Below are positions 11,387 through 59,323 of a stretch of DNA of 64,000 nt, piece after piece. The translations under genes and the position numbers were made by a program. The notes beneath the pieces are model-generated. The model was given only the letters and a program-made list of their open reading frames with translations. It did not search any database and had not been told where the DNA came from. Position 1 is the first letter of the stretch, and every line of letters begins with the position of its first letter. Source of the DNA: Eledone cirrhosa (lineage: Eukaryota); assembly GCA_964016885.1 (NCBI GenBank), contig OZ024740.1, positions 155,558,001 to 155,622,000 of the forward strand. Direction: 5' to 3'.

Positions 11387-11816
11387 GATGAAGGCATGTG
11401 GCTAAGTGGTTAGAGAACTGGATTCACAATCATGGGGTTGTGAACTTGATTCCCAGACTGTTATGTCCTTGAGCAAAACACTTTATTTCATATTGCTCCT
11501 TCTGCCGGGATTTGCAACTGGTAGATAGTATTAGAAATTGGAAAGGCCGATGGAAACATTGTTTCCTTGGTCCAATTTGGCGAGCTCCGCCCAACTCGTT
11601 AAGCAAATGAGGCCTGGGATCTTGATGATCAACTGTTATATATAATCCATGCAAGCATGGAAAGATAGACATTAAACGGTGATGATGATGATGATATATA
11701 CATATATATATGTGTGTGTGGAGATTTATGCGTATATGTACATATATATACATGGTATATTTTCTGTTAATTAATCAACTGACACTAGTGTATGCAGGAT
11801 AGAGCACTCAACAATT

Positions 11817-12178
11817 ATAACAATGAAGTAGAAACCAATAGGTTAGAATTTACATCAATTTATGGATTACATTATCACTGTTATGTATCAGTTACCATCT
11901 CATCACACAGCATGAATAGAAAATTACATGAATAAAATAACACAAACAAAAATAAATGAATAAAAATTACTTAAGCAGTTTCCATTCAGTGATATGCCAC
12001 ATGTGGGTTATTGGTGTTGTTTTCTGAAAGCCCTGCCAGTAAATTTTATTCAAGTAATAGATGTCTGATGAGAACGTAAGTGTTACATATCAGTTACCAT
12101 TGAAATATGTATAACAGTGAGTATGTAATCAATAAAATTAGGTAATTATTACTTACTGGTTTCTACTTCACTGTTTAT
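11817..12178. repeat. Diverged fold-back element, Penelope pseudo-LTR-like
   Basis: 11817-11912 is the approximate reverse complement of 12059-12178 (tgaagtagaaacca / tggtttctacttca; tcactgttat / ataacagtga), with a deletion in the left arm. Confidence 0.7.
12061..12117 (+). ncRNA. Degenerate minimal type I hammerhead ribozyme motif
   Basis: tgt-CTGATGA(12065-71)-decayed stem II-GAAA(12102-05)-tatgta-TA-aca. Same self-complementary stem III as the motif at 57768. Confidence 0.55.
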
Positions 12179-13693: not shown

Positions 13694-15531
13694 CATCATC
13701 ATCATCATCATCATCATCAACGTTTAACGTCCGTGTTCCACGCTTGCATGGGTTTGGACGGGGGTAGTCCCACTTGAGGCAAGAGTGATTGTCTTGCTCG
13801 CATAGGACTGTCTGGCAGGTTTTCTACAGTTGGATGCCCTTCCTAACACCAACCACATTTACAGTGTGGGTCTGGGAGGTTTTTACCGTGTTGCCTACAC
13901 GGCCACATTACAGCGTGGACTGTGTGTTTTTTTGTCGTGACACCTACACGATCTCATTTGTTTCGGCCTGGATGGCGCGGCACCAACATAACTTTACATA
14001 GGACGGGGTGGTGTGGATGGGTGGGGGTGGTGGCGGGACAGGGTGTATTTTGTTAGAGATGCCTACTGGCAAGGCGGGTCTTCTCTGTTACTGAGTACCG
14101 CCAAAGGTCTCGGTCCAGTGACATTGTCTTGGAGAGGTGTAAGTGTGTGAGGTCGGAGTTTATCAGCTCATCCCAGGTTTTTCTAGGTCTGCCTATTCCG
14201 TGGCTACCGTCTATCTTTATTGCCCTGCACTTTGTTATACAGCTGTCGTCTTTCATGCGCATCACGTGACCGTACCAACGTAGCCTTCTCTCGAGTAAAC
14301 AACATCTGATCCCTCTTATTTCTAATTTTTTCCTTAGTTCGTTTATGCTTTGCCGTTCACGTATATTACTGTTACACATCCAGCGGAGCATGCAAGCTTC
14401 GTTCCTCTCTAGTCTGCGTATATCCTCTGCACACAATGCCCAGGTCTCACTGCCATGCAACATTGCTGTTCGTATGCAGGCATCGTACAACCTGCCTTTC
14501 ATTTTGAGGGAGAACCCTTTAGCAGCTAATAGTGGTATAAGCTCTCTGAACTTTTTCCAACCAGTTCTGACTCTAGCTACAGTACTTTCAGAGCACCCTC
14601 CCCCACTGCTGATTTTATCGCCCAGGTAACGGAAGCTGTCCACTATTTCTATAGAACCCTCTGCGCAATTGAAAGAGCTAGTATTTTGTGGGCACTTGCT
14701 GCTACTTATTGCACCAGAACACCGGCCACATGTAAAATCTATGTTCTTAGTTAGCTTACCTGTGATCCCACTACATCTTTTATGCACCCATACTTTGCAT
14801 TTAGGACATAAAATGGAGTTTCTACCTACGCCTTTCCTACACACCGAGCACGACCATTTCCCAGAAGGGACCGCCGCCTTGTTTTCTTTCCTACAAACTA
14901 GAACTTTGGTCTTAGCCAGGTTAATTTTAAGTCCTTTTGACTCTAGGCCGTGCTTCCATGTTTGGAATTTCTTCTCTAGCTCGACCATTGATTCCGCTAT
15001 GAGTGTCAGGTCGTCTGCGTATAGGAGTTCCCATGGGCAGCCTGTCTTGAACTCCTCTGTTATAGCCTGAAGGGCAATAATAAATAGTAGGGGGCTGAGA
15101 ACAGAGCCCTGATGGACGCCAACTTTTACGCTAAACTCTTCACTATATTCGTTGTTAATTCTAACCTTGCTGACTGTTTCTTTATACATGGCTTGTATAG
15201 CCTTCACAAGCCATTCGTCAACCCCTAGTTTTCTAAGAGCCCACCAGATAATGGAGCGGGGGACTCTGTCGAAGGCTTTCTCCAAGTCGACAAAAGCTAA
15301 GTAGAGGGGTTTACCTTTAGCTAGGAACTTCTCCTGTAGTTGTCGTACTATGAAAAGAGCGTCTGTGGTACTTTTGCCTGACACAAACCCGAACTGCATT
15401 TCATCTAGGTCAATTCTCTCTCTGATTAGTTGCGCTATTACTTTTTCCGTGACCTTCATGACCTGGTCGATTAATTTAATGCCTCTATAGTTACTCCTAT
15501 CTAGGGCGTCTCCTTTACCCTTATAACAGTT
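13694..15531 (-). mobile_element. RTE-clade LINE, 3' part (element A)
   Basis: RT ORF, 3' UTR and (GAT)n tail, read as (CAT)n at 13694-13718 on +. Confidence 0.95.
14053..15531 (-). CDS. Non-LTR retrotransposon reverse transcriptase (5'-interrupted), with an internal PHD-like finger
   Basis: Open frame from NCYKGKGD through QFGF, FVDLEKAFD, GVHQGSVLSP, LLYADD, FRYLG, RLRWYGHV and GRP motifs. Confidence 0.92.
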   Translation of the reverse strand, partial: NCYKGKGDALDRSNYRGIKLIDQVMKVTEKVIAQLIRERIDLDEMQFGFVSGKSTTDALFIVRQLQEKFLAKGKPLYLAFVDLEKAFDRVPRSIIWWALRKLGVDEWLVKAIQAMYKETVSKVRINNEYSEEFSVKVGVHQGSVLSPLLFIIALQAITEEFKTGCPWELLYADDLTLIAESMVELEKKFQTWKHGLESKGLKINLAKTKVLVCRKENKAAVPSGKWSCSVCRKGVGRNSILCPKCKVWVHKRCSGITGKLTKNIDFTCGRCSGAISSSKCPQNTSSFNCAEGSIEIVDSFRYLGDKISSGGGCSESTVARVRTGWKKFRELIPLLAAKGFSLKMKGRLYDACIRTAMLHGSETWALCAEDIRRLERNEACMLRWMCNSNIRERQSINELRKKLEIRGIRCCLLERRLRWYGHVMRMKDDSCITKCRAIKIDGSHGIGRPRKTWDELINSDLTHLHLSKTMSLDRDLWRYSVTEKTRLASRHL

Positions 15532-16884
15532 ATATCAGCTTACGCACCCCAATCGGGGCTGCCAGACGAACTTAAGGATAGGTTTTACGAGTCCCTAATA
15601 CACACTACTGCTCTAACAGACGACAAGGACTTCCTAATCATTGCAGGAGATTTTAACGGACACGTAGGTAAACACTGCGACGGCTTCAATAGAGTACATG
15701 GAGGCCATGGAGTTGGCACAAGGAATGAGGAAGGATTCAGACTTCTAGAATTCTGCGACGCCAATGACATGTCGATATGTAACACAAACTTTAAAAAACC
15801 CGACAACCACCTGATCACCTATAGATCAGGGGAGCACTCTAGTCAGTTAGATTTTATCCTCATCAGAGGACGTGACAGATGGACGGTCGTAAACACAAAA
15901 GCCTTCCCTAGTGAGGAATGTACATCCCAACATAGCTTAGTTGTCAGCGACCTCACGGTCAGAACTAGACGAGCCCTGAAACAGAGGCCAACCTGGAGAA
16001 GAAAGATCTGGAAGCTGAAAGTCCCCTCAACCAGTAACAGATTTAAAGATATTTTACTCAACGCCTACGACAGTAAAGAAGAACAGATAGAGACATTTAA
16101 CGTAGAAGAGAACTGGGAGTTCCTAAAAAATAACTTACTAGAGGCGACGGATGAGGTTTGTGGCTGGAGTAAGACCTCAAGCAGGAGGAGAGTGACTTGG
16201 TGGTGGAACAATAAGGTAGATGAAGCAGTCAAGGCCAAGAGACAGGCATGGAAAGAATGGAAGAACGGGGGGAGCAGGGTACATTACATAGAGACCAAGA
16301 GGGAAGCTAGGCGACAAGTATACTTAGCTAGGAGGAAAGCAGAGGATAGAAAATTCAAGCATGTTTTACAACGTGAGGACCAGAAACAGGAGGTATTCAA
16401 GATTGCGAGGCAGTGTGTCAGAGATAGTTGTGATGTCATTGGAGAGAAGTGTATCCGGAATGATAAAGGTGAGCTTGCCCTCACAAGTGCTGAGAAGAAA
16501 GATGCATGGAAGAGTCATTATGATAGATTACTAAATGAGGAGAATGCATGGGAAGAAGAGACCCTACCCCACGTAGACCCTATAGAGGGACCAGCAGTAC
16601 AAGTCAGCGGCAGCGTAGTAAGTAAGGCAATCAGAGATATGAAGATAGGGAAGGCAACCGGTCCATCGGGTATAGCTGCCGAGATGCTGAAGGCATCTGG
16701 GTCTGTAGGTCACACTATAACCACACGTATCGTTAACCAGGTAATACTAGAGGGGGCCATACCAAAAGATTGGTGCAGTAGCATCATTGTCAACTGCTAC
16801 AAAGGTAAAGGCGATGCACTAGATAGAGGAAACTATAGAGGTATAAAGTTGATGGACCAGGTCATGAAAGTAACAGCTGATTAG
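15532..16884 (+). CDS. LINE ORF2 N-terminal part: APE endonuclease and linker, ended by a frameshift
   Basis: ISAYAP, IIAGDFNGHVG, TYRSG..SQLDFIL, SQHSLVV, WWNNKV, GKATGPSG and NYRGIKL motifs. The frame is open from 15532, upstream of the first ATG at 15769. Confidence 0.9.
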   Translation: MSAYAPQSGLPDELKDRFYESLIHTTALTDDKDFLIIAGDFNGHVGKHCDGFNRVHGGHGVGTRNEEGFRLLEFCDANDMSICNTNFKKPDNHLITYRSGEHSSQLDFILIRGRDRWTVVNTKAFPSEECTSQHSLVVSDLTVRTRRALKQRPTWRRKIWKLKVPSTSNRFKDILLNAYDSKEEQIETFNVEENWEFLKNNLLEATDEVCGWSKTSSRRRVTWWWNNKVDEAVKAKRQAWKEWKNGGSRVHYIETKREARRQVYLARRKAEDRKFKHVLQREDQKQEVFKIARQCVRDSCDVIGEKCIRNDKGELALTSAEKKDAWKSHYDRLLNEENAWEEETLPHVDPIEGPAVQVSGSVVSKAIRDMKIGKATGPSGIAAEMLKASGSVGHTITTRIVNQVILEGAIPKDWCSSIIVNCYKGKGDALDRGNYRGIKLMDQVMKVTAD

Positions 16885-18247
16885 GGACCGGGTGAATATA
16901 GACGAGATGCAATTTGGGTTTGTTCCAGGGAAAGGCACCACTGATGCGCTCTTCCTTGTGAGGCAATTACAGGAAAAGTACCTAGCTAAAAGTAAGCCAC
17001 TCTACTTGGCATTTGTCGACCTTGAGAAAGCCTTTGACAGAGTTCCACGTGCAGTAATCTGGTGGGCTCTTAGAAAACTAGGAGTAGATGAATGGCTTGT
17101 GAAAGCGGTACAAGCCATGTATAGGGGAGCAGTCAGCAAAGTTAGGATTGGCAATGAGTATAGCGAGGAATTTAGCGTACAGGTTGGGGTCCACCAGGGC
17201 TCTGTTCTTAGCCCTCTCCTGTTCATCATAGTCCTGCAGGCAATAACGGAGGAGTTTAAGACCGGATGCCCATGGGAACTCCTGTATGCTGATGACCTCG
17301 CACTCATAGCTGAATCTATGGTAGAACTAGAGAATAAATTCCAAACCTGGAAGCAGGGACTAGAGAGAAAGGGCCTCAAAGTCAACATGACAAAGACTAA
17401 GGTCCTTATAAGTAGACGAGAAAACAGAACCCAGATCCCCTCAGGGAAATGGCCTTGCTCAGTATGTAGGAAAGGTGTAGGTAGGAACTCCATTCTTTGC
17501 CCCAAATGCAAACAATGGGTACACAAGAGATGTAGCGGGATCTCAGGAAGCTTAATTAAGAATGTAGGATTCACATGCAGCAGCTGTGCTGAAACAGCAA
17601 GCAAACAGCCACAGGAAACAAGTACCACCAATCTCTGGGAGGGCCCTGTAGAAACAGTAGACAGCTTCTGCTACCTAGGTGACCGAATTAGCAACGGAGG
17701 TGGGTGCTCAGAAAGTATAATAACTAGGGTAAGAACGGGATGGAAGAAGTTTAGGGAACTACTACCACTGCTAGCTGCAAAAGGCTTCTCCCTCAGAATG
17801 AAAGGCAGACTGTATGATGCGTGTATCCGAACAGCGATGTTGCATGGTAGTGAGACCTGGGCGCTGAAGGTGGAAGACTTACGTAGATTAGAGAGAAACG
17901 AAGCCTGCATGCTCCGATGGATGTGTAACAGTAATATACGTGAACGACAAAGCATAAATGAATTGAGAGAGAGACTGAGCATAAGAGGAATCAAATGCTG
18001 CGTGCAGGAGAGGCGGTTACGCTGGTATGGACATGTGATGCGTATGAAGGATGACAGCTGCATAAAAAGGTGCAGAGCACTAGAAGTTGATGGAAACCGC
18101 GGAGTGGGGAGACCCAAGATGACTTGGGATGAGGTGATAAAAGCCGACCTTACCCAACTACACCTCTCAAAGTCAATGACACACGACCGTGACTTCTGGC
18201 GTCACGCAGTAATACAGGGTACCCGACCTCCCATGGGTACATGCTGA
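16877..18247 (+). CDS. LINE ORF2 C-terminal part: reverse transcriptase with PHD-like insertion
   Basis: QFGF, FVDLEKAFD, GVHQGSVLSP, LLYADD, FCYLG and RLRWYGHV motifs. Continues the upstream ORF after a small deletion. Confidence 0.9.
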   Translation: MIRDRVNIDEMQFGFVPGKGTTDALFLVRQLQEKYLAKSKPLYLAFVDLEKAFDRVPRAVIWWALRKLGVDEWLVKAVQAMYRGAVSKVRIGNEYSEEFSVQVGVHQGSVLSPLLFIIVLQAITEEFKTGCPWELLYADDLALIAESMVELENKFQTWKQGLERKGLKVNMTKTKVLISRRENRTQIPSGKWPCSVCRKGVGRNSILCPKCKQWVHKRCSGISGSLIKNVGFTCSSCAETASKQPQETSTTNLWEGPVETVDSFCYLGDRISNGGGCSESIITRVRTGWKKFRELLPLLAAKGFSLRMKGRLYDACIRTAMLHGSETWALKVEDLRRLERNEACMLRWMCNSNIRERQSINELRERLSIRGIKCCVQERRLRWYGHVMRMKDDSCIKRCRALEVDGNRGVGRPKMTWDEVIKADLTQLHLSKSMTHDRDFWRHAVIQGTRPPMGTC

Positions 18248-18548
18248 AGCATATAAACAATATGCCCCCCCCCCCCCACCGCAAGGTGGTCGTGGAGGTG
18301 CCACGGCAAAAAAGCACCCAGCCCACACTGTAAAGTGGACGTGTAGGCGCCACGAAAAAGCACCCAGCACTCACTGTAAATGAGGTTGGTGTTAGGAAGG
18401 GCATCCAGCTGTAGAAATCAAGCCAGATCAGTTCCTGTATGAGCAAGGCATGGTCAGCCGACCAGACACTGCCCACAACAGGACAACCCGTCTAACCCAT
18501 GCTAGCGTGGAAGAACGGACGTAAAACGGTGATGATGATGATGATGAT

Positions 18549-18852
18549 GATGATGCTGCTATGCCAGTCCTTCGGAACAACCCCATTCTGTACGACTTGG
18601 TTAACTATGCGGGTGACCATGGTGTGTCCCACCGTGCCAGATGCCTTCAGCATCTCAGCAACTATTTCCGAAGGCCCAGCCGCCTTACCTGTCTTCATAT
18701 CCTTGATTGCCTTACTTATTATACTCCCCTCGACTAACACTGCTGGTCCCTCTATTGGGTCGACATGGGGGAGACTGTCTTTCTCCCATTTATTCTCCTC
18801 ATTTAGTAGCCTTTCATAGTGACACTTCCAAGCTACCTTCTTATCAGTGTCG
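18549..18852 (-). mobile_element. RTE LINE fragment C, the upstream part of element A
   Basis: Translates DKKVAWKCHYERLLNEEN...PKDWHSSII, which in element B directly precedes VNCYKGKG, where A resumes. Confidence 0.9.
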
Positions 18853-20496
18853 AAAAAAAGATAACATATCTTGGAGCAGATATATAACAAATGAGCACAT
18901 CTATGTGTGAAAACACATGGCTTTATGGTATTTTGCTCACAATCGTATGGTTATGGGCTCAATTCCTGGTATTGTGTTGAGTTCTTGAACAAGATACTTT
19001 ATTTCACATTGTTCCAGTCCCCTCAGATAGCAAAAACGAATTGGATCTGTAATTCAAAGGGCTAGCCATGTCACAAACATGTCATGCTGAATTTTCCTGA
19101 TAATTACATTATGGGTGCACGTATCTGTGGAATGCTAAGCTACTTGCATGCTAATTTCTGCTGTTCAGACAACTAAAACACTAATCATTGAAAGAAACAG
19201 AGGTCCAACACACATCCATATGGAGATGTTTTTGATTACTAGCTAAATAAGTATTTCATTAACTTGTGGTTTATTTACTTCTACAAAAATATATGATAAA
19301 TACATCTGTACTGTGACTGTAGAATATTTAACTTAAGCTGTGTGAATGTGTCAGTAAATACATTGACATATGTAAACATGTGACCTTTTTGTTTTTACAT
19401 ATTTCTCTGTGGATCTAAACAGCATGAAGGATCTGACTTCAATTTCAAATACAACTGGAGTCATCTTCAGTGATTGTTTATTCATCTCCCATTCTATAGA
19501 GAAATATGCAACTCTATAAACTCACCTGACCCATAGTTAGGGTGTTAGACTCAGGGTTATATGGCCAAGGATTCGATTCTTGGACTGGGTGGCACTTTGT
19601 GTTCATAAGCAAGATGCTTCATTTTAAATGTTTTTTTCATAAGATTGTGGCCCCTATCATTAAAACACCTAAGAAATCTCCTATGGGATGCAATTAACTT
19701 ACATAGCTGTGAGCTGTGAATTTCATTCTTCATTTCAAATATGAAAGTAATCGCCATTTTTAAATCTAAATTTGCATAATATTAGTGTTTACACTGGTAG
19801 TTAAATTGTGCATTAAGCAGCTGAGGTGTACAGTAAACACATATCTATATGGACGCAGTTCAGGATATAACCCTTTTTGTTAATGTATTTCTAATATATT
19901 TCATTTAATTTTGAAACTAGTAAAAAAACTAGTAGAATTTTGTAAAATAACCAACATTTTCATTATTAAGTTAATACTTGGAGCATTACTTAATATAAAG
20001 ATCTTATATAAAATTAAGAACACTTTGAAACAAGCAGTTTTTGTATCTTAGAACCAGAGGCAATTTCAAGAAGATTGATATCAAATGGGTTACCCAAAAC
20101 TGTATAAATGTGTAAATAAATACACTGACATATGTAAACATGTATTAGTGTATCTTTTATGTATTTCTCCACAGACTGAAAAAGAGTGAAAGATCTGTCT
20201 TGAGTTTCAACTCTAATTGAAGCCTCCCTTTGAGATCATTTACACCTATGTCAGTCCACAGAAATATGCAACTAATGGTTTTATAAACCCAACAAAGATT
20301 ATAGTATCAGCAAATTAGAGATCTAATTAATATAATCCAAGCTGTATGCAATATAAACTTGAGATATAGAATATATTAGAAATAGTCTGGTAAAGACATA
20401 ACTCCTTTTGTTACCAGCTTTCTAAAGGAATATACTGCCATTGTATTTCAGTTAATATTGAAAATAATAAATTTCATTATTAGTAGAAACATCAGG

Positions 20497-37890: not shown

Positions 37891-37962
37891 GGTGAGAAAC
37901 TGCGGGAATCCACGACACACGTTACGTGACGTCACATCGTCATGGTGTACAAGATGGCGACG
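37860..37962. promoter_or_regulatory. CpG-rich, probably bidirectional promoter
   Basis: Palindromic CRE TGACGTCA at 37927-37934, YY1-like CAAGATGGCG at 37950-37959 (+) and CAACATGGC (-), ETS-like CTTCCGG, and local CpG enrichment. Confidence 0.65.
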
Positions 37963-38450
37963 GTCGGCTGCTGCACGGACGAGCAGGATAGTGGTGCTAT
38001 GGAAGATGGTGAAGAGGCAGCCAACAAAGAACATAATAATAGTCACAGTACGATGACAACAACAACATCAACGAACTCTCAGTTAGTGGACGTTTGTAAA
38101 AAAAATGGTGTTGTTCTCAATTGTATCCTAGATGAAAAATCGCCGTGCCATGCTTCCATCACCACCACCACTACTCGCACAATCGTCGAAGATGCAAAGA
38201 AGAAGCAGCAGAAAGTAGCGACCAAATCTGACAAGAGTTCTCGGATTAATGGTAGTAATATCAATATCAACAGCAACTCGACGACCAAGGGACTATTGCT
38301 AAATCAACCATCCATTCCGAATTTACGTTCAAGGAAAGATAAACAGCGACCGATAATTGAGTCGCCCCGTAAAAGGAGGAGGTCTTCTCGACATGAAAAA
38401 GCTGATCAGCAGCAGCAACAACTGCCGACAACAGTCTCAACAACAGAGAG
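37954..38450 (+). CDS. First coding exon of an unidentified gene (low-complexity N-terminus with basic NLS-like PRKRRRSSR)
   Basis: AAGATGGCG start context (alternative in-frame ATG at 37942), ~165 open codons with T/N/Q runs, GC step relative to flanks, donor AG|GTAAAA at 38450/38451 (phase 2). Confidence 0.75.
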
Positions 38451-41400
38451 GTAAAACAAACAAAAACATAATAATAATATCTATAGATTTGTTTCTTTGT
38501 TTTTGTTTTAATTTTATTTGTTACTGATTTTTTTTTCACATATATAATTACCGCGTTTATTTGAAAATAGCACGAGTTCATTAAGTTGAGAAAATCATGT
38601 ATTATGTATTAAATACATAACCACTCTTCGATATCTATATTTATTTATTTATGTATGTATGAATGTATACAGGTTTTGCGGAAAAGAAAAAAAAAATAGA
38701 TATATGAAGTAGTCTATGAAGTAGTCAACAACAGCAACAAGCTGACACGAGCATGGTTACTGAACAAATTAAAGGTAAACGTAGTGGAAGGGGAGTAAGA
38801 CGAAGGCCTGTACACACACACATGCCTACGTTCACTTCATTGTAACCGATGTATGTATTCGTTCCTTGGCGATCTGAATTGCTGTAAATAGTTACACGCT
38901 ATATATATATATATAAATGATGTATGTTTGTTTCCTCTACGTATCCCTGTATATATATATATATAAATACTATATAACATGCTAATTTTTATTAGTGAAG
39001 GGCGTATGTAAATAACTGGCAGTGATAATATTTTTCCCTTTCATAAGTAAAAAGCTAACAATGTCTAGTCTATTGAAATGCTTTCATTTTTTTTTCCTTG
39101 CATAAGTATCTCTACAAAAGTAATTCGTTTCTCTTCCTTTTTTTCCCCTCCCACTTCCATTATACTTTTTGATTTTCACAGGATATATGCATATAACCAA
39201 AAGTTGTCTACATTTATTGATATTTTGAATTAATATATATGCATATATAAATATATATATATATATATAAGTGGAAGGGATATTTAATTTGATAGATAGA
39301 ATAAATATGGTTTTATAAATATAGTTTCCATTTATTTAATATCATTGAGTGTGTGTATATATATATATATGGCAGCTAGTTAAGTTTGTCAACTTTAATG
39401 TGAATGTAAAAACAAAAGCGGAAGATCTTTCAAGTTAGAATATGTTTAAATCAATCTCTATGACATATGCTTCACGGTATACCGATCGTCCCCATTTACC
39501 AACATCTCAAAGCCTATTTATTATATTGTTTTATGTTCATCTATTATGTATTCATTCAGTTCACGTAAATTTGTATTTGATTCTATTTTTTTCTGTTTTT
39601 TACCGATCGAATTGTATAAAATATATGCATCTATATACTAACTGTTACACCTGGGAAAAAAGTGGTGGTGGTAGGGCGTTGGAAAAATCGAATATTTGTG
39701 ATATTAACGATTTGCATATATTTTATTTGTAAAGCACCGGATCAGAACTAATTTACATGCCATAACGTCGATTTTTTTTTTTTTTTTTTTTTTATTTATC
39801 ACTCAACACATGTGGTTGTACACTGCCATATTTGAACAGTCTAATACCCAGAATGCTCTTTCCACGTGACGTCACTTCATTGAAAACTACAAACGGAACC
39901 AAATATAAAATTGTTTATTCAATATGTATATATCTTAGTTGTTGCTTCAATTCTTTCTTGAAAGATGCTTGAATGTATTTTAGGTGCATGTCTAAAGTTA
40001 TAATGAAAAATATCTGCCCAAGCACCCACACCATATCGAACCCAGGACCTCATGATAAACCACTCGATCATGCTTCTGTCCAATGCAATATATGTTTATA
40101 TCCATACATGCACAGACATAATCACCCTGTCGATGATAGGGTGAATAGACGTGTGTGTATGTGGACACCGATATGGTTGGCTGGTCAAGAAGTTCCCTTT
40201 GTAATCATGAGATATCGCGTACCTTCCGGCAGAAGCTGTAGACGCAACGTCGAATTGATTCCACCTGCAATTCAAAGGCCCAGCTTTGTCATTAATTGAT
40301 TGTATCGCAGTGTTTCGGCCTGAGAATTGCCTTAAGGATACACGTGTCTGTGGTGGAATTCTCAGCTACATATACGAGTAGCTAACAGTGTAGTAGCAAG
40401 ATCAAACAGCTGAATGCAATCGTCGAAACAAACGGAGGATCCACCATAATCACAATTTCACACAGGCTACGGGTTCATTCAAGAATGTATATGTATATAT
40501 GCCTATCAATTGAAAATATATATTAATGAATAATTTGAAGGCTCATTAAAGTATGGGGTTTAGGAAAAATGATACGATATAACGAATTATTTATGAAATT
40601 GCAATTAATTAAATATCGCCCTTGTCCACTGTGTCTTGTCATCTCGTTCTTTTATTTATATAGAATTGCATGAATTTTTCTTTAGTAGTTCTATGTAAAA
40701 GTAATCTTTTCCTCCCTTGCAAATATCTTAATTTTAAATGGTGATCACGATCGTCTCTGTATTAGATGTTCGGTTAGTTTTACATAATTTAACTAAATAA
40801 TACTATTTCTCTGCTTTCCATCATTTATACTTGACCATTTCTTTCATTTTCCGGGTATTATCACTTGTTTTTTGTTAGTATTTCTAATCTACCGGTGAGA
40901 TTTTGATAGTGTAAGTTAGTAATGGTTGTGTAGTGGCAATACGATTGTACTCCAGAAACGTAGGAGTCATAACTATACATACACAGCTACATTCTTTTAT
41001 CTATATATACACATAGAGGAATTTATCTTACACACTAATCTACACATATTTATGCACACGTACATACATACTTTCAGCTAAAAAAATATTCTACTCTTTT
41101 CTTTCTACGAGATTTTGTTCATTCATTTCTCTTCCATTTCCTCATGTATGAGTGTCTGCTTGCTACTATACTGTTATTTAATAAAAGTTCATTTGTAAAT
41201 AAGTAAAGAAAAAAAAACATCTTAATTTTAGTTAATTTTTTTTGCTTTGAAAGAATCAATGAGCCCCACACGTACACACAAAAGGATTTACAAATAGGTT
41301 TTTTACGATCTTTGACGTGACCAAATTTATGGGTTTGCACTTTTTGTTGAAAGAAAATGTCTGTTTGTAGACTCCACACATGGTTTCTTGGAAATATTTT

Positions 41401-55919: not shown

Positions 55920-56105
55920 GGTAAAGGGATTGGTAGTATCAGTAGTGGGTCGGACGCCATGTTTTAAAGCATAGTTATGCCCCTTTACAATCTGAGTTCA
56001 AATCCCGCCGAGGTTTACTTTGCTTTTCATTCTTACAGGTTCGATAAAATAAAGTACCAGTATTACACTGAGGTAATTGCTGGCCTTGTGCCAAAAGATG
56101 AAATA
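55920..56105 (+). mobile_element. SINE family 1 with TSD
   Basis: Direct repeat attatctacaat(g/a)ctaa at 55903-55919 and 56106-56122. Confidence 0.85.
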
Positions 56106-57144: not shown

Positions 57145-57461
57145 ATATAAGTATGTATGTATACGTACATACATATATGTATACAGTAGTATGTATATAT
57201 ATATATATGCACGTATCGGTTTACCGAACATTTATTATAATGCTCGGTTTGTTTGTTTGTAAACAAACACACACCCCGAATTACGCCGTAAAAAAGAAAA
57301 AAAAAAAAAAAGGTGACGTGGTTGTCTAAACACTGTACGGCGTAATTCGGGCTGTTTGTTTGTTTACAAACAAACAAACCGAGCATTATAATAAATGTTC
57401 GGTAAACCGATACGTGCATATATATGTGTGCATGTATGTACGTATACATACATACTTATAT
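57145..57461. repeat. Fold-back element with near-identical arms and an A-rich spacer
   Basis: tgcacgtatcggtttaccgaacatttattataatgctcggtttgtttgtttgtaaacaaaca...cccgaattacgccgta mirrored at 57337-57425. Confidence 0.9.
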
Positions 57462-57515: not shown

Positions 57516-57553
<38 letters not shown>

Positions 57554-57560
<7 letters not shown>

Positions 57561-57870
57561 CAAATGGAAACTATATTTATAAAACCATATTTATTTCATT
57601 ATACATATTTCAAGGACACCAAGTTAAATTATGGTGTGCTTTCATTAGATAAAATATAATATAGAGCAGTTTTATAAATAAATATTGACATACCCTTAAA
57701 GAATGTAACCATTACTGTTGGAAGCTCCCGGATAGTCAATATTTATTTATAAAACTGCTCTATATTATATTTTATCTGATGAAAGCACACCGTAATTTAA
57801 CTTGGTGTCCTTGAAATATGTATAATGAAATAAATATGGTTTTATAAATATAGTTTCCATTTGTTAATAT
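57554..57870. repeat. Fold-back element, 136-bp arms with 2 mismatches, between (TA)n tracts (Penelope pseudo-LTR-like)
   Basis: 57554-57689 versus 57735-57870, 45-bp spacer. A partial third copy lies at ~39300-39345. Confidence 0.92.
57768..57832 (+). ncRNA. Minimal type I hammerhead ribozyme motif
   Basis: Stem I tattttat/atgaaata; CTGATGA 57776-82; stem II aag.acacc/ggtgt.ctt; GAAA 57813-16; self-complementary stem III atatgtat; predicted cleavage after AUA at 57824. Confidence 0.75.
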
Positions 57871-57963
57871 CGTATTTTTACTCCAATTATTTTGTTGAGT
57901 GCTTTATATCAGTTATAAAAATATTTGCTTGTTGCATCCCAACAATTTAAATATAACTTTTAC

Positions 57964-58041
<78 letters not shown>

Positions 58042-59140: not shown

Positions 59141-59323
59141 TAATTGTTTCTACTTTAGGCACAAGGCCAGCAAATAGCCAGTGCATTACTGGTACTTTAT
59201 TTTATCGACCCCGTAAGGATGAAAGGCAAAGTCAACCTCGGTGGGATTTGAACTCAGATCGTAAAGGGACGTAACTATGCTGGAAAGCATGCCGTCCGAC
59301 CCTCTACCGATACTGCCAATCCA
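59141..59323 (-). mobile_element. Young SINE family 1
   Basis: Near-identical to 2541-2724. Confidence 0.85.

Follow-up and report, generated by a model that had tools for sequence, protein, structure and literature searches.

The inverted repeat at 57554-57870 of a 64,000-nt window of the Eledone cirrhosa genome (contig OZ024740.1; positions below are those of this window), which an earlier note had described as a hammerhead ribozyme facing its own inactivated antisense copy, very probably represents two truncated copies of a transposable element that were joined within a (TA)n microsatellite, likely in a single insertion event, with the G5A change in the left-arm hammerhead core likely a later chance mutation. 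On sequence comparison the locus is classed as two head-to-head, 5'-truncated copies of the pLTR end of a Hydra-clade Penelope-like element (PLE). It is one of thousands of passive insertions, and what the analysis adds on the insertion mechanism is modest and testable: a rule for how the ends of such copies are paired and a sequence motif duplicated next to these ends.

The insertion spans 411 nt (57554-57964) within (TA)n (Table 1). Its two arms (57554-57689 and 57735-57870; 136 nt each and 45 nt apart) are 99% complementary, with exactly two mismatches, at 57632/57792 and 57646/57778; this agrees with the earlier description of the left arm as an inverted copy with only two differences, one of which (T57646) turns the minus-strand core into CUAAUGA. 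Each arm carries one private change, the one in the right arm being an A>G at 57632/57792, assigned to that arm because the family majority is A; CpG decay was considered for this mismatch and rejected, in view of the A in most copies and of a reciprocal C>T that is uncommon. Comparison with other genomic copies revealed that the 45-nt 'spacer' between the arms is element sequence. It is no true spacer: the antisense copy extends further 5' and meets the sense copy at the GT microhomology, and the sense copy in turn continues 92 nt beyond its arm.

Table 1. Positions of the element copies, the hammerhead motif and their surroundings in the window.
Feature	Position	Strand	Basis or remark
First coding exon of AEBP2-like zinc-finger gene, likely host gene	37942..38451	+	
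(TA)n target microsatellite, left half	57519..57553	none	sequence
Antisense 5'-truncated pLTR copy including the 45-nt 'spacer', short (S) 3' end	57554..57736	-	reference positions 84-266, type S
G5A in hammerhead core of antisense copy, private to left arm	57646	-	arm comparison
GT microhomology, 2 nt, joining both truncated 5' ends	57735..57736	none	gap -2
Sense 5'-truncated pLTR copy, long (L) 3' end	57735..57964	+	96% identical to pLTR of L031
Minimal type I hammerhead motif	57760..57839	+	core and stem pairing; covariation across families; cleavage predicted only
Stem I	57760-75/57825-39	+	8 bp + bulged A57767 + 7 bp
CUGAUGA core	57776-82	+	
Stem II	57783-812	+	3 bp + C.C mismatch + 6 bp
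GAAA	57813-16	+	
Stem III, palindromic AUAUGUAU		+	self-complementary, duplex -2.2 kcal/mol
'Tail' of ~91 nt between S and L ends, on one arm only	57873..57964	+	
TGTTGAGYGCT motif, ~19 nt 3' of S end	57893..57903	+	second copy 18 nt 3' of L end in tandem copies
(TA)n target microsatellite, right half	57965..58022	none	sequence

Other genomic copies link the arm to a PLE open reading frame (ORF) encoding reverse transcriptase (RT) and a GIY-YIG endonuclease. One near-full copy (L031) consists, in order, of an inverted short arm, a tail fragment, the RT + GIY-YIG ORF, a 3' region of about 1.8 kb and a pLTR 96% identical to that of the locus, its ORF being broken by frameshifts and stops. Among 20 ORF loci, chosen for long open frames and tallied by hand, 14 were co-linear into a locus-type pLTR and 19 carried a pLTR piece nearby; in tandem copies the hammerhead lies in sense, upstream of the ATG. 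The single ORF encodes an RT with a C-terminal GIY-YIG endonuclease, with YRDD at residue 271 and the GIY-YIG-type IVY..YVG at 538 of one copy (P0003), and Atlas look-alikes of the element protein carry GIY-YIG (0.95-0.96); Pfam and PDB sequence searches with this protein returned neither an RT nor a GIY-YIG match. Pairs of pLTR in tandem, an inverted 5'-truncated copy and a tail at one end, which together make up the insertion structure of EN+ PLEs, were all present. The earlier proposals of a Penelope origin, of a young high-copy family and of an inverted pLTR are supported.

Within the protein, RWR (in L031) is a conservative variant of RWK and SDKT stands for DKT; the CxCX5C linker reads CNCRNKSNC in most copies, with Y for the last C in P0003, and CxxC and CxH surround a conserved E and N as CDLCIE and LN..CCRH. 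No CX2-5CxxC was found in the P0003 protein, the absence of CCHH being judged by eye. The feature list of the Hydra clade comprises RT + GIY-YIG, DKT, CxCX5C, CxxC/CxH and (TA)n insertion (PMC8557442), and the motif order of our element protein agrees, compared by eye, with the supplementary alignment of that study; an initial assignment to the Neptune clade was dropped once this list had been compared. By motifs and (TA)n target, the family is assigned to the Hydra clade. Like Hydra-clade elements such as Hydra-1_Obim and Penelope-13_HM (Craig et al. 2021, PMC8557442), it has the RT followed by GIY-YIG, DKT, CxCX5C, CxxC/CxH, (TA)n targets and a hammerhead near the 3' end, and with Penelope-13_HM it shares an inverted 5'-truncated copy with the same hammerhead on both strands. 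It differs in its length (about 4.3 kb with a long 3' region, whereas published Hydra-clade families are generally <3 kb; PMC8557442), in RWR instead of RWK, in its tail of about 91 nt instead of 30-40, and in a hammerhead that, unlike that of Hydra-1_Obim, has a longer stem I, a C.C in stem II and AUAUGUAU as stem III. An asparagine-rich stretch between RT and linker (RT thumb region of the L031 ORF) varies in length among copies and recalls the N-rich inserts described for Adineta Penelope elements (PMC3846280).

The earlier alternative of a retrozyme-like element was not borne out, since the locus derives from the truncated terminus of an element that has an ORF. Short inverted pairs abound among the sampled loci, as they would be if a non-autonomous retrozyme or foldback element moved as a palindromic unit, yet such an origin is highly improbable: ORF-bearing copies have the same ends, the locus contains no tandem hammerhead array of the kind by which the preprint text defines non-LTR retrozymes (bioRxiv 10.64898/2026.07.22.740005), and the centre junction differs between loci, which implies that pairs form anew at each insertion.

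The plus-strand motif combines the CUGANGA, GAAA and UH core with stems I and II, having C3 at 57776, G5 at 57778, G12 at 57813 and a predicted cut after 57824. The right arm thus holds a complete minimal hammerhead motif with a self-complementary stem III, as first described, whereas its stem I has 8 bp, a bulge and 7 bp rather than 8 + 5 bp. The minimum free energy structure of the isolated motif (-15.3 kcal/mol) is slightly unlike the active-fold skeleton (-13.7 kcal/mol). The Rfam covariance models, through which the earlier note had proposed to verify the motif, gave no hammerhead match at either E<=1 or E<=10. Across the whole 3.0-Gb genome, a 25-mer around the core had 4,031 exact matches and at least 9,241 with up to one mismatch; the reversed-pattern control gave 0, indicating that the motif is more than a chance resemblance. 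A pattern that excluded the family of the locus retrieved 6,399 further motifs with different stems. Rfam thus overlooks a class of hammerheads to which at least 9,241 + 6,399 matches in the genome belong.

Stem covariation, looked for among 20 motifs hand-picked from 141 distinct ones to span families, was found: 14 of the 17 stem pairs change on both sides, and the covariation score was 0.555 compared with 0.300 after shuffling, a test that kinship can inflate, and <=0.168 after sliding. Since these motifs were picked by their core pattern, the invariance of the core is built into the alignment. Among 144 arms chosen without regard to the 5' core pattern, differences affected 2.3% of core positions (26/1,111), compared with 5.2% of other hammerhead positions (370/7,124) and 4.2% of flanking positions (344/8,222). 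By these measures the hammerhead is under constraint within the lineage. Stem II is closed by A-U in the family of the locus and by G-C, G.U or A-U in sister families. The C.C mismatch at the fourth position of stem II (57786/57809), sometimes with another pyrimidine, recurs across families with differing stems and is possibly a site of tertiary contact, and in some subfamilies the stem III G at 57821 is an A, which yields the fully Watson-Crick palindrome AUAUAUAU.

The motif resembles the minimal hammerheads of metazoan PLEs as presented by Cervera and De la Pena (2014, PMC4209133) in its type I core, long stem II and palindromic stem III. It lacks both G10.1-C11.1 and an unpaired base after A9, which in that account are usual features of minimal hammerheads and not descriptor requirements; A10.1-U11.1, read here from sequence, takes the place of the G-C given there for metazoan PLE hammerheads. 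The same account describes dual hammerhead motifs on opposite strands, 100-700 bp apart, in Schistosoma. Opposite-strand pairs in such elements are thus already published.

The designation of G5A as a dead mutant is confirmed by the literature, in which the change abolishes cleavage (PMC4027429). At this position G is the family majority (217,653/220,373 depth in run X1, the kind of run being unrecorded). G5A occurs in 69 genomic copies spread over many subfamily backgrounds. This number equals the average over all possible single changes (69.5 copies each, subfamily variants raising the average), and a function for the change finds no support in these counts. Core G>A changes are rare (G5A 69 and G8A 33 per 4,031; G12A 43 per 8,153), G5A being 2-3 times commoner than G8A or G12A; at the single comparator site, a stem I G>A that keeps pairing has been amplified to 1,428 per 8,153. 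Arms with G5A lean to the S end type (43:20 versus 27:29, p=0.04 uncorrected; loci L059-L088 and L199-L233). Both arms carry G5A at 7 of the 23 loci covered twice, compared with 46/312 for other rare variants (p=0.069), so some G5A copies either predate insertion or were converted; these seven loci suggest that dead RNA is sometimes inserted, or that arms convert each other. Although its surplus over the other two core changes, its lean to S arms and its presence in both arms at some loci speak against this, G5A is probably sporadic decay without meaning; in the left arm it could matter only to a minus-strand transcript. Marks of a deaminase acting on cDNA were not found (G>A 34 versus C>T 26, p=0.52). 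An excess of A>G over T>C (45 versus 31, p=0.02), to which one hot site and loci chosen for that allele contribute, was not accepted as editing, the rare variants over all arms being level (131 versus 134).

Next, we compared the ends of the inverted copies. The 3' ends of the element lie at either of two positions separated by about 91 nt (S and L). After 24 of 116 unique inverted pairs had been dropped for an arm ending elsewhere, 88 of the 92 classifiable pairs consisted of one long and one short arm (50% expected, p=5e-22), two were short+short and two long+long, the four that break the rule. The same bias was evident in the intact-core sample alone (24/25 pairs) and, by hand tally, in a sister family (12/12 classifiable pairs, of 14). 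Both outer ends were (TA)n-like in 67 of the 88 long/short pairs, with (TA)n at 79/88 S ends and 75/88 L ends. The junction position varies; among 64 directly joined pairs the arms overlap in 57, the junction overlap is >=2 nt in 38, and in 7 the L arm shares no overlap with the S arm. The 5' ends cluster at reference positions 84-94, beside a near-palindrome. Divergence within pairs was 3.0%, compared with 5.8% for shuffled ones (48 pairs), and subfamily alleles were concordant within pairs (for example 34/39 versus 15.8 expected); the similarity of arms could come partly from gene conversion. No pLTR alleles were seen to differ between S and L arms. Furthermore, 154 of 176 arms span the predicted cut site and 4 start there, with no pile-up of 5' ends at this site; as a core in one arm or both was the criterion for choosing loci, the read-through count is biased.

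The sequences beyond the two ends are related. In tandem copies that read past the L end, the 40-nt stretches following the two ends resemble each other (for each of two copies, a score as high arose in 2 of 5,000 shuffles), and TGTYGAGYGCT lies 18-19 nt after each end; the recurrence predicted 3' of the L end in the sister family gave 0 matches, among sequences that held no read-through copy. The end rule favours coordinated priming from both target strands and likely records how the element inserts. The endonuclease of the element would cut both strands of (TA)n, each target 3' end would prime reverse transcription on uncut element RNA of one source, one primer starting at the S site and its counterpart 91 nt further downstream, at the L site, and both cDNAs would stop early and then be joined by microhomology. 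The hammerhead would likely serve the parent element by processing its tandem transcripts, either dimerized or aided by protein, and would be a passenger at the locus.

An inverted arm could also form if the near-palindrome let the cDNA or an antisense template fold back and copy itself, as has been proposed for Adineta Penelope elements (PMC3846280). This would account for the alleles common to both arms and for the clustering of 5' ends by the near-palindrome, but it is unlikely: a copy made from an S-ended cDNA cannot hold the tail, a copy of an L-ended cDNA would have no evident cause to stop at the S site, seven directly joined L arms have no S-arm overlap whatever, and elsewhere the inverted piece has its start within the ORF. 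Priming from both target strands also recalls the twin priming of LINE-1, in which primers from opposite target strands give rise to an inversion joined by microhomology, the twin-primed segments being without overlap. The present pairs differ in that 57/64 directly joined arms overlap and in that both ends are fixed sites.

The double priming that we infer fits the in vitro behaviour of the Poseidon protein of Anolis (PAc; Frangieh et al. 2024, PMC11167929), which, in the experiments described there, cuts and extends both strands, uses two internal starts and takes uncut RNA as template, ribozyme cleavage being unneeded. As in our family, the two internal starts bracket the tail, the target is AT-rich and the template is uncut RNA. 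In PAc, however, the hammerhead overlaps the start codon and the starts lie within the ORF (PMC11167929), whereas here both ends are upstream of the ATG. The start site showed no strand preference in the assays reported for PAc, so that the pairing rule was not reproduced there, whereas our genomic pairs have nearly always one end of each kind. A stricter form of the preferred reading, in which double priming is obligately asymmetric and two protomers sit on the two motif copies 91 nt apart on one template, can be put forward only tentatively. If it held, the S site would always be the starting point for one of the cut strands and the L site for its partner; each insertion would then necessarily produce the 'optional tail', the motif spacing would dictate how long this tail is, and RNAs with a dead ribozyme would insert all the same. 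The origin of tandem and inverted PLE ends has been named an open question (PMC8557442). No count of end pairing and no name for the duplicated motif was found in the literature outside subscription journals and Repbase entries, where the family or the end rule may be on record. The family offers a countable end rule, a candidate cis-motif at both ends and numerous ORFs that are nearly intact, which allows an in vitro test to be planned directly.

The first coding exon (37942-38451) of the AEBP2-like gene, the likely host, matches an Argonauta protein at 82%. Later AEBP2-like exons are found on the minus strand, some 528 kb to the left (C1:155,019,098-155,068,226), exon 1 being on the plus strand, and the splice phases of the two AEBP2-like exons fit; a search of 748 kb did not recover Argonauta residues 170-201. 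Assembly gaps at C1:155,341,210 and 155,687,154 bound a 346-kb piece with exon 1 and the locus, and there is a further gap at C1:155,106,080. A flipped 346-kb contig is the simplest reading of this arrangement. The earlier placement of the locus in an intron of a plus-strand gene is likely right, with the intact motif in sense, and rests on this contig appearing flipped in the assembly.

For this setting the earlier note had proposed that the antisense arm would trap the ribozyme in dsRNA, which could make an intronic self-cleaving RNA tolerable or dependent on unwinding or A-to-I editing; on a functional reading the arm would have been kept for this reason. In favour of this, the hairpin expected of a plus transcript has an energy of about -216 kcal/mol, the locus probably lies in an intron whose transcript carries the motif in sense, and retrozymes are depleted from Xenopus introns (bioRxiv 10.64898/2026.07.22.740005). 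Full antisense cover of the core, however, was found for 23/60 intact, 28/69 G5A and 15/30 G8A arms (p=0.86; pooled p=0.62), the intact set being a near-consecutive sample of the earliest places listed on C1, and 30 of 33 making up the G8A set. Intact cores are thus covered no more often than dead cores, 37 of the 60 intact-core arms have no covering arm, and masking is not supported. Of the four host-sense intact motifs in the inferred intron, a tiny sample, two are accompanied by a full antisense copy at most 3.5 kb away and one by a partial copy, which would suit masking, and one is uncovered, which would not. Masking may also be unnecessary, as cleavage was not seen for a single minimal motif of S. 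mansoni in the assay described in PMC4209133 and the anole motif needed protein in that of PMC11167929. As inverted arms are moreover the normal insertion product of the family, we regard a masking role as very unlikely. Under the preferred reading of a passive insertion, the host transcript would contain one sense motif only, folded into a long hairpin, as a by-product without sign of selection.

Other repeats in the window were also noted. A second inverted repeat (57173-57453; 118-nt arms, 88%, 45 nt apart) belongs to another common family, whose arm matches many of the loci compared, often again as inverted pairs; no hammerhead core was seen in it. A more decayed hammerhead motif of another family lies at 12047-12129 (+), also with AUAUGUAU as stem III, and to its left are a partial inverted arm (about 11819-11884) and a TGTTGAGTGCT motif at 11813 on the minus strand. 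Two LINE copies in opposite orientation, which we take from their motifs to be RTE-like, occupy 14053-18950 with long open frames (457-493 aa). Finally, two 144-nt copies of a short dispersed repeat (55927-56070 and 59179-59322; 88%) flank the locus in inverted orientation, 3.1 kb apart, and form another potential intronic dsRNA.
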